NCBI RefSeq assembly: GCF_003334255.1
Contig: NZ_QOWU01000036.1
Reading direction: 5' to 3' (one strand)
Length of the DNA: 53,120 nucleotides
Origin: Escherichia coli
GTDB taxonomy: Bacteria; Pseudomonadota; Gammaproteobacteria; Enterobacterales; Enterobacteriaceae
Part shown: in pieces, positions 5,881 through 6,300 of the stretch
Position numbering within the stretch: the stretch's first letter is position 1
Layout: every line of letters begins with the position of its first letter
Made by a program: the position numbers and the translations under genes
The notes under the pieces: generated by a model
Database searches by the model: none
Told to the model about the DNA's origin: nothing
What the model saw: the letters and a program-made list of their open reading frames with translations, nothing else

Positions 5881-6072
5881 CCTGCTATGCAAGATGTTAA
5901 TTCCGCTTCTCTTTCTATGAGAAAATTTCATTAATATCAGGCATTCTTTTTCATTATGATCAAAATCATATAATTGTTCCGTTATTATGCGACCATATGA
6001 ATATATCCGAAAAAGGATATGTGAAATTTATACGCTAAATGTTTAGTATTGTTAAATATTAAGGGTAAAAGG

Positions 6073-6243
6073 ATGTTTATCGCCTGGTACTGGATTGTAT
6101 TGATTGCTCTGGTTGTGGTGGGTTATTTCCTGCATTTGAAACGTTATTGTCGGGCGTTTCGCCAGGACAGAGACGCACTGCTTGAAGCGCGGAACAAATA
6201 CTTAAACAGTACGAGAGAAGAGACAGCCGAAAAGGTAGAATAA
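6073..6243 (+). CDS. Small predicted single-pass membrane protein (56 aa)
   Basis: ORF 6049..6243 trimmed to ATG with AAGG Shine-Dalgarno 5 nt upstream; MFIAWYWIVLIALVVVGYFLHL hydrophobic helix then basic tail; followed by strong hairpin; I am not certain of its K-12 name. Confidence 0.5.
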   Translation: MFIAWYWIVLIALVVVGYFLHLKRYCRAFRQDRDALLEARNKYLNSTREETAEKVE

Positions 6244-6260
6244 GGCTTTCGTGAAGCTGG

Positions 6261-6291
6261 CAGAAGTTGTCCATGCGCTGGACAACTTCTG
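6261..6291 (+). terminator. Hairpin terminator between small ORF and convergent zupT
   Basis: Perfect 13-bp inverted repeat CAGAAGTTGTCCA-TGCGC-TGGACAACTTCTG followed by T-rich tract. Confidence 0.7.
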
Positions 6292-6300
6292 ATGTTGTTT

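Follow-up and report, generated by a model that had tools for sequence, protein, structure and literature searches.

yqiD, a conserved small-protein gene between ribB and zupT of Escherichia coli, with a probable FNR-activated promoter

The window analyzed here is a stretch of 53,120 nucleotides of Escherichia coli DNA (contig NZ_QOWU01000036.1 of assembly GCF_003334255.1); from the yqiG region as far as the hyb operon, it is colinear with K-12. Between ribB and zupT lies a small open reading frame (ORF) whose ATG at 6073 and stop codon at 6241-6243 delimit a product of 56 amino acids, MFIAWYWIVLIALVVVGYFLHLKRYCRAFRQDRDALLEARNKYLNSTREETAEKVE. A first-pass annotation of this DNA, made from the letters alone, had given this start, this product, and this position between the two genes, and all three are as it described them. 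RefSeq places a coding sequence at exactly 6073-6243 under the name “yqiD: protein YqiD” (WP_000469266.1), as it does in MG1655. The encoded protein is 100% identical to K-12 YqiD, and its gene holds the same position relative to ribB and zupT. When a 521-base query around the ORF was compared with 5,426 complete E. coli genomes, 4,433 of them matched at an identity of at least 95%, and more than 4,400 complete E. coli genomes carry the annotation “yqiD: protein YqiD” for the feature under the match. The small ORF is, with near certainty, a real coding gene, namely the known monocistronic E. coli gene yqiD (b4756). The features of the locus are collected in Table 1.

Table 1. Features of the yqiD locus, with positions counted from the first letter of the window
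Feature	Position	Strand	Basis or remark
ribB	5158-5811	+	Upstream neighbor of yqiD
FNR site predicted by Myers 2013, TTGATCATAATGAA (U00096.2 3181683)	5950-5963	-	PMC3688515 Table S6
Palindrome ATGATCAAAATCAT, probable FNR site; core TGAT-N4-ATCA at 5957-5968	5956-5969	.	Conservation, matrix score, ChIP peak
Approximate yqiD promoter core and putative transcription start	5985-6010	+	Sigma70 and FNR peaks; conserved TATATGAAT at 5994-6002
Conserved AT-rich leader with AAGGG at 6061-6065	6020-6072	+	Alignments
yqiD coding sequence, 56 amino acids and stop	6073-6243	+	RefSeq WP_000469266.1; protein detected (PMC6001520); purifying selection
Predicted transmembrane helix, residues 2-22 (FIAWYWIVLIALVVVGYFLHL)	6076-6138	+	Hydropathy 2.43; pLDDT 84-88; W5/W7 nearly invariant
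Conserved juxtamembrane helix, predicted to be cytoplasmic, residues 23-42 (KRYCRAFRQDRDALLEARNK)	6139-6198	+	Residue conservation across 23 members
Variable charged C-terminal tail, residues 43-56	6199-6240	+	No conservation between genera; pLDDT 53-69
Intrinsic terminator: 13-bp stem and 5-nt loop (6261-6291), U tract 6292-6302	6261-6302	+	Fold energy, covariation
zupT	6301-7074	-	Convergent neighbor of yqiD

The gene call itself adds nothing new, since yqiD is annotated and its product has already been detected by others. VanOrsdel et al. 2018 (PMC6001520) reported the identical 56-amino acid sequence, placed it between zupT and ribB, and detected the protein by chromosomal SPA-tag insertion and immunoblotting. 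The same paper notes that a tetracycline-inhibited ribosome-profiling screen had returned yqiD as one of its unidentified positives, and YqiD-SPA was seen in ordinary LB cultures, expressed from the native locus. Searching with the 56-amino acid sequence and consulting ribosome-profiling data, both of which the first-pass annotation had proposed as checks, lead to YqiD and to a positive signal at this locus, and the immunoblot and the RefSeq entry bear out its claim of a genuine small-protein gene. The gene is also mentioned, as b4756, in a 2026 paper on NAD-capped RNA. A 2025 preprint associates differences in yqiD expression between isolates with cis non-coding variants, and these differences were reproduced in reporter fusions. 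The literature searched yielded no published function for yqiD and no partner, phenotype, or localization experiment for YqiD, which is one of many validated small proteins of E. coli without a known role. Most literature matches for the name “yqiD” concern an unrelated Bacillus subtilis ispA homolog, and one is a reviewer’s slip for YqjD.

The longest ORF that can be called mechanically in this frame runs from a TTG at 6049 to 6243 and would encode 64 amino acids. Comparison of orthologous leaders shows that this TTG is not a conserved in-frame start; in several orthologs it is out of frame because of one extra A in the leader. The N-terminal sequence MFIAWYW, by comparison, is conserved in every ortholog. 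A well-spaced Shine-Dalgarno sequence, AAGGG, occupies 6061-6065, with 7 nt separating it from the ATG at 6073. A second purine run, AAGG at 6069-6072, directly adjoins the start codon, which leaves too little distance for it to function. The earlier description of a correctly spaced AAGG holds for the AAGGG run.

The orthologous loci that we compared come from a divergent E. coli allele, E. albertii, Citrobacter freundii, C. amalonaticus, C. rodentium, two Salmonella lineages, and an Enterobacter-like genome. Codons 1-42 of yqiD align without gaps, with dN/dS values of 0.03-0.17 wherever dS could be estimated. Between genera, pS in these codons reaches 0.45-0.94, which is near saturation, and the non-synonymous differences amount to 0.03-0.25. 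Variable columns fall at 21, 13, and 36 of the 42 first, second, and third codon positions, respectively. In Escherichia, Citrobacter, and Salmonella alike, selection on residues 1-42 is strongly purifying. Loss of the reading frame in related genomes had been named beforehand as the outcome that would speak against a gene; the frame is kept in all orthologs examined, and in genus terms in Escherichia, Citrobacter, Salmonella, Enterobacter spp., Kosakonia, and Phytobacter. The last ∼14 codons evolve freely and are not conserved between genera. In this tail, crude dN/dS is 0.09 for the single very close pair, K-12 and E. albertii, and rises as high as 2.4 among the others.

YqiD belongs to a small family with a narrow distribution. 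A word-indexed protein search returned 108 relatives, all of them, besides metagenome sequences, from Escherichia, Citrobacter, and Salmonella, and some are labeled “DUF4051 domain-containing protein.” A profile search of 1.84 billion representative sequences found just 25 family proteins at E ≤ 0.001, the distant ones belonging to unclassified Enterobacter, Kosakonia, Phytobacter/Metakosakonia, and Atlantibacter. The family is confined to Enterobacteriaceae. Among 23 members, with identities as low as 30%, three residues (M1, A28, and R30) never vary, and I3, W5, W7, R24, R33, and A35 are nearly invariant. The family signature consists of the N-terminal MFIAWYW, a hydrophobic helix, and then (K/R)R-x-C-(K/R)-A-(F/Y)-R-(Q/H)-(D/E)-R-(D/E)-A-L. 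Close homologs from Citrobacter, Salmonella, Kosakonia, and Phytobacter carry the DUF4051 label from NCBI or UniRef; a Pfam-A scan of YqiD itself gave no DUF4051 match, but that model may have left the library scanned.

Remote homology to characterized families was also considered and set aside. The Pfam-A scan gave weak matches only, to DUF2621 (E 8e-4), DUF6526, and DUF4381, and the NCBIfam scan gave only sub-threshold hits, at 18 bits against a cut-off of 50. A PADLOC search returned no match, a PHROGs search returned nothing significant (E ≥ 0.019), and a profile search of the PDB reached E ≥ 0.03 at best, to GapR-like UPF0335 helices. These weak matches fit the generic composition of a transmembrane segment followed by a charged helix. 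The neighboring zupT prompted us to consider His21 and Cys26 as a metal site. Both residues are invariant in the close set of orthologs; however, they are lost or moved in the distant homologs and so are not a ligand pair that defines the family.

The protein has a simple architecture. Its Kyte-Doolittle hydropathy, taken over a 19-residue span, has its maximum of 2.43 at residues 2-20, and its charges are asymmetric: the segment ahead of the helix bears none, and five K/R fall within the 15 residues that follow it. The first-pass description of a single-pass membrane protein with a charged tail agrees well with these values. By the positive-inside rule, the five basic residues after the helix predict an N-out, C-in orientation. 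YqiD is thus predicted, with good confidence, to be a single-pass inner-membrane protein whose N-terminus is periplasmic and whose C-terminus is cytoplasmic. AlphaFold2, supplied with a 23-sequence alignment, models one helix over residues 2-55 with a mean pLDDT of 72.7; the membrane part is modeled at 84-88 and the remainder at 53-72. As one long helix, YqiD would span the inner membrane with residues 2-22, its N-terminus in the periplasm, and in the cytoplasm would have a basic juxtamembrane segment that is highly conserved (KRYCRAFRQDRDALLEAR), followed by an acidic tail that varies. The conserved cytoplasmic stretch is an obvious candidate contact surface, and this surface (KRYCRAFRQDRDAL) offers a defined target for mutation.

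The yqiD unit ends at a strong hairpin. Positions 6261-6273 pair with 6279-6291 in 13 perfect pairs, six of them G-C, and the stem is followed by the U tract AUGUUGUUUUU; downstream of the hairpin, ATGTTGTTTTT overlaps the zupT stop codon at 6301-6303. The 66-nt stretch 6240-6305 folds at −24.6 kcal/mol, against −13.5 ± 2.5 for shuffled sequences (z = −4.4), and none of 200 shuffles was as good. A terminator scan of 5750-6400 returned two sites where 0.5 were expected, the other being the ribB terminator at 5842-5873. The hairpin occupies the same place in seven orthologous loci, with three of its pairs preserved by matching substitutions in both arms. In C. rodentium and in locus L009, there is no such hairpin, and the intergenic gap to zupT is very short; in L009 the two genes overlap by 4 nt. 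A conserved intrinsic terminator ends the yqiD transcript ahead of the convergent zupT. The first-pass annotation had described a perfect 13-bp hairpin with a T tract, which is correct, as following the ORF immediately, which is not, the hairpin beginning 18 nt beyond the stop codon. It had also called the terminator strong and yqiD’s own; the fold energy supports the first word, while the second needs qualifying in that the hairpin is common to yqiD and the convergent zupT. On the minus strand, no U tract follows it. No 3′ end at this terminator was found in the Term-seq tables.

Upstream of yqiD, conservation begins abruptly. The alignment shows none before 5955, then an invariant TATGATCAAAATCATAT at 5955-5971, then the TATATGAAT block and a well-conserved AT-rich leader up to the Shine-Dalgarno sequence. 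At the start of this conserved stretch lies the palindrome ATGATCAAAATCAT, which is invariant in eight Escherichia, Citrobacter, and Salmonella loci and is found 108.5-111.5 nt upstream of the ATG in each; the sequence immediately preceding it cannot be aligned among the eight. It agrees with the FNR consensus TTGAT-N4-ATCAA at 8 of 10 positions, with a perfect core. On a matrix that we built from 62 other ChIP-bound sites (PMC3688515 Table S6), it scores 12.6 bits, the second-best score in the 53-kb window. This is within the range of the bound sites, albeit at its low end, above 3 of the 62. Scores across all eight loci lie between 11.4 and 12.6 bits. The box is absent from the loci of the distant homologs in Kosakonia, Phytobacter, and the two metagenomic loci L017 and L018.

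Published ChIP-seq data place FNR at this position. Myers 2013 (PMC3688515) lists an FNR peak at U00096.2 3181647, labeled “5′ of zupT/ribB,” that was called by MOSAiCS, NCIS, and CisGenome and also by ChIP-chip (Table S5). A sigma70 peak at 3181649 rises from 395 under aerobic to 1002 under anaerobic conditions, a 2.5-fold change with an adjusted p of 7e-83 (Table S2). To carry these coordinates over, we used the relation window = 3187646 − U00096.2 coordinate, anchored by the 14-mer that Myers 2013 predicted as the FNR site, which is the reverse complement of 5950-5963. The FNR peak then maps to ∼5999 and the sigma70 peak to ∼5997, 75 nt upstream of the yqiD ATG, and no gene other than yqiD lies downstream of a promoter placed there. 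The site predicted in that study overlaps the palindrome with an offset of 6 nt. It scores 11.1 bits in the window but <5 bits at the same position in other species, and is probably secondary or specific to K-12. In Table S9 of the same paper, the target, the regulators, and the transcription starts of the peak are all given as “Unknown,” and the peak is listed among those without an FNR-dependent expression change in an annotated downstream operon. The gene yqiD could not be scored in that work because the gene was unannotated in 2013.

Taken together, the FNR peak, the anaerobic rise of sigma70, the conserved palindrome, and the presence of a single downstream gene are most simply explained if the peak marks the yqiD promoter. 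On the strength of the published ChIP data and the conservation, yqiD is probably under FNR control, with FNR as an activator. A sigma70 promoter would initiate the transcript ∼65-75 nt ahead of the ATG, and FNR on the palindrome would activate this promoter when oxygen is low. The direction of transcription and the geometry are both inferred: a start near 6004 would place the palindrome at −41.5, the position of class II boxes, those of class I being centered at −61.5 or farther upstream. No yqiD transcription start was found in the possibly incomplete files of the Term-seq, Cappable-seq, and SMRT-Cappable-seq supplements (Adams 2021, Ettwiller 2016, Yan 2018). The new element of our work is this linking of yqiD, with conservation support, to an FNR peak that previously had no target.

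It is instructive to set the yqiD promoter beside the FNR-dependent promoters of nirB, narG, and dmsA (Myers 2013), which carry a TTGAT-N4-ATCAA site ahead of their −10 element. Like them, it shows FNR occupancy in vivo and more sigma70 without oxygen, and it shares their TGAT-N4-ATCA core and their lack of a conserved −35 element. Its box departs from TTGAT-N4-ATCAA promoters in having A and T, not T and A, at the outer positions, and its peak differs from theirs in that the published tables give it no target.

A competing explanation is that the palindrome is the operator of some other regulator, or that it supplies the −10 TATGAT of a constitutive promoter (TTAATA-18-TATGAT, 5931-5960), FNR binding being non-productive in either case. 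A consensus scan does find the TTAATA-18-TATGAT site, but promoter-like matches in the region are no commoner than in shuffled sequence (1 versus 1.6 expected), and the proposed −35 element at 5931-5936 is unconserved, whereas everything from the palindrome onward is conserved. Although the palindrome deviates from the consensus at both outer positions, the bound sites include one at ppiA/tsgA, GTGATCAAAATCAC, whose core and spacer are the same (PMC3688515). Many FNR peaks go without any expression change (Myers 2013, PMC3688515 Table S9), and YqiD has been seen in aerobic LB cultures, both of which suit non-productive binding; against it, the sigma70 peak lies ∼35 nt beyond the palindrome in the direction of yqiD and is 2.5-fold higher when oxygen is absent. 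We therefore consider this explanation rather unlikely, and activation by FNR remains our preferred reading of the promoter. The accumulation of YqiD-SPA in ordinary LB cultures does indicate that yqiD expression is not strictly dependent on anaerobiosis.

Two further ideas about the leader were examined and dropped. Its TGTTTA and TGTTAA repeats, 10 bp apart, resemble ArcA half-sites, but the supplements of the ArcA ChIP paper hold no entry for zupT, ribB, or coordinates 31815xx-31816xx. A structured, riboswitch-like leader was sought in 6004-6095; this segment gave z = −1.0 and a consensus energy of −4.25 kcal/mol with almost no covariation. An Rfam scan of the yqiD region returned no family besides a chance-level miRNA match (E 0.44).

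Conceivably, the RNA rather than the protein is the functional product of the locus, the ORF being incidental or secondary; for example, FNR-induced read-through antisense to zupT could lower zupT expression under anaerobic conditions. Such overlap has some basis. Adams 2021 reports a Rho termination region at 3183026 (-) in U00096.3, or about 6598 in the window, which is on the yqiD strand and antisense to zupT. Its location within zupT implies that some transcription passes the hairpin. The two genes are convergent in 11 of the 13 loci examined (K-12, the divergent E. coli allele, E. albertii, three Citrobacter species, two Salmonella lineages, the Enterobacter-like genome, Kosakonia, and Phytobacter), and the leader at 6020-6072 is more conserved than the synonymous sites of the ORF. 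However, it is the amino acid sequence that is conserved, with low dN/dS at saturated dS, and the protein is made. The compensatory changes in the terminator argue that stopping before zupT has been selected, and no Rfam family matches. An RNA product in place of the protein is very improbable; an RNA role could nonetheless be a second one beside that of YqiD.

YqiD resembles type I toxins (Hok, TisB, Ldr, Ibs) in size and in its small hydrophobic N-terminal helix followed by a charged tail, and the convergent zupT and the Rho-dependent termination region inside it show overlapping transcription at the locus, but a peptide that damages or depolarizes the membrane and is silenced by an antisense or overlapping RNA is extremely improbable here. 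In several genera, strong purifying selection acts on yqiD, a syntenic core gene present in one copy. During normal growth its tagged product builds up when expressed from the native locus, which is not the usual behavior of such toxins. Its strong Shine-Dalgarno sequence is not sequestered by any stable leader structure, it has no match in PADLOC and none of significance in PHROGs or NCBIfam, and Rfam shows no antisense RNA family for the region.

E. coli has several small single-pass inner-membrane modulators, among them MgtS, AcrZ, MgrB, MntS, and CydX. Like these, YqiD has fewer than 60 residues, a single transmembrane helix, and a narrow taxonomic range, and its gene stands in a small unit of its own under what is probably a stress-responsive regulator, in this case FNR. 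It shares no sequence similarity with them, and its conserved part reaches ∼20 residues into the cytoplasm, farther than in most of them. By this analogy, YqiD may itself be a modulator of a larger membrane protein, a suggestion that we offer tentatively. Its transmembrane helix and conserved RQDRDAL face would dock onto the partner, and so alter the activity or stability of that partner under oxygen limitation. As a whole, the locus is very likely best explained by the known gene yqiD, encoding a membrane protein, with FNR control and a modulator role as its further parts. If true, the reading of YqiD as an anaerobic modulator assigns a target to an FNR ChIP-seq peak that has been left without one since 2013. 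Should the control by FNR be confirmed, the anaerobic regulon would gain one small membrane protein, which is useful to know and would not surprise specialists.

A more specific version of this proposal would make YqiD an FNR-induced protein that acts specifically under oxygen limitation and binds and tunes a larger inner-membrane transporter, possibly ZupT, the metal importer encoded next to it, so as to couple anaerobiosis to metal uptake, with two alleles of yqiD in E. coli reflecting selection on that interaction. We regard this version as quite unlikely. ZupT is a candidate only because its gene is the neighbor of yqiD, and that it is the partner of YqiD seems very doubtful. A tight functional linkage between the two genes is contradicted by the metagenomic loci L017 and L018, where the yqiD homolog does not adjoin zupT, and their proximity elsewhere may reflect ancestral gene order only.

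The upstream side of yqiD is variable. The gene is preceded by ribB in K-12, C. freundii, Kosakonia, and Phytobacter, by assT-dsbL-dsbI in Salmonella, C. rodentium, and C. amalonaticus, and by a chaperone-usher fimbrial operon in E. albertii and in ∼18% of E. coli genomes. The gene itself exists in E. coli as two ancient alleles, the deeply diverged one being carried by ∼18% of the genomes.

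The yqiD gene exists in E. coli as two deeply diverged haplotypes. Among 5,426 complete E. coli genomes, ∼975 carry the diverged form, and its product (WP_001296421.1), annotated solely as "hypothetical protein," shares 69% amino acid identity. The divergence extends through the promoter, coding sequence, and terminator, which are 62–80% identical to K-12 (positions 5955–6300 of the window against 1500–1851 of the compared locus L002). Identity rises sharply exactly at the zupT stop codon, and the first 200 nt of zupT in the diverged haplotype are 100% identical to K-12. The dS between the two E. 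coli alleles is ∼2, as high as that between E. coli and Salmonella. Recombinant yqiD alleles are also present (protein P0013).

The slot directly upstream of yqiD is an insertion hotspot with differing contents, seen in the window at 5812–5950, in L004 at 9898–14872, and in compared loci L011, L005–L007, L013, and L014. In K-12 this slot is empty and ribB abuts it. A four-gene chaperone–usher fimbrial operon lies there in E. coli genomes with the divergent allele and in E. albertii; assT-dsbL-dsbI takes this position in Salmonella, C. rodentium, and C. amalonaticus. Related fimbrial genes of K-12 (ygiL and an usher) are located on the opposite side of ubiK.

In some strains, the yqiD locus is broken by IS1 elements. 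An IS1B occupies the expected place of yqiD in strain FCI23 (L003, 1639–2336), where zupT alone matches, and an IS1A lies inside the matched region of strain cM8a (genome match H16). A 2-kb metagenome contig (L020, 1499–1876) encodes a 125-aa ORF, P0123, in which the first ∼70 residues of ZupT are followed by the C-terminal half of a protein resembling YqiD. This joined ORF occurs a single time; the probable explanation is an assembly chimera or a local rearrangement.

Within the yqiD leader (6020–6072), cross-genus conservation exceeds that of synonymous sites in the yqiD ORF. No significant RNA structure was found in this leader, which contains a pair of direct repeats (see the table), and ArcA ChIP data yielded no entry for the yqiD locus. 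Of the neighboring elements, the FMN riboswitch 5′ of ribB is already known and annotated. In Rfam, the ribB terminator and 3′ UTR match the Salmonella sRNA family STnc240 below threshold, at 29 bits (gathering score, 55; E = 0.12). The FNR peaks listed by Myers 2013 (PMC3688515), from which 62 ChIP-bound sites supplied our FNR matrix, include none at the zupT/ygiD promoter region.

Sequence elements around yqiD (window coordinates)
Feature	Position	Location	Details
FMN riboswitch	4906–5054	upstream of ribB	Rfam RF00050, 120.9 bits
ribB terminator	hairpin 5842–5873	with ribB 3′ UTR in 5810–5880	
Direct repeats TGTTTA / TGTTAA	6040–6045 / 6050–6055	yqiD leader	10 bp apart
Two overlapping TGAT-N4-ATCA cores (TGATGATCATCATCA)	7123–7137	zupT–ygiD intergenic, divergent zupT/ygiD promoter region	10.1 bits, FNR matrix

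Supplementary file 2 of Adams et al. 2021 (PMC7815308) reports a Rho-dependent termination region at U00096.3 position 3183026 (−), which maps to approximately position 6598 on the + strand of the window. It lies within zupT, antisense to that gene and on the yqiD strand, which implies that transcription either reads through the yqiD hairpin or starts internally in the antisense direction.

Finally, Orf3334 (CBG36162.1) of enteroaggregative E. coli 042, a hypothetical gene of the "DUF4051 family," is probably the yqiD orthologue. It was among the only three of 23 tested genes whose expression was raised in an aar mutant (PMC5570504).
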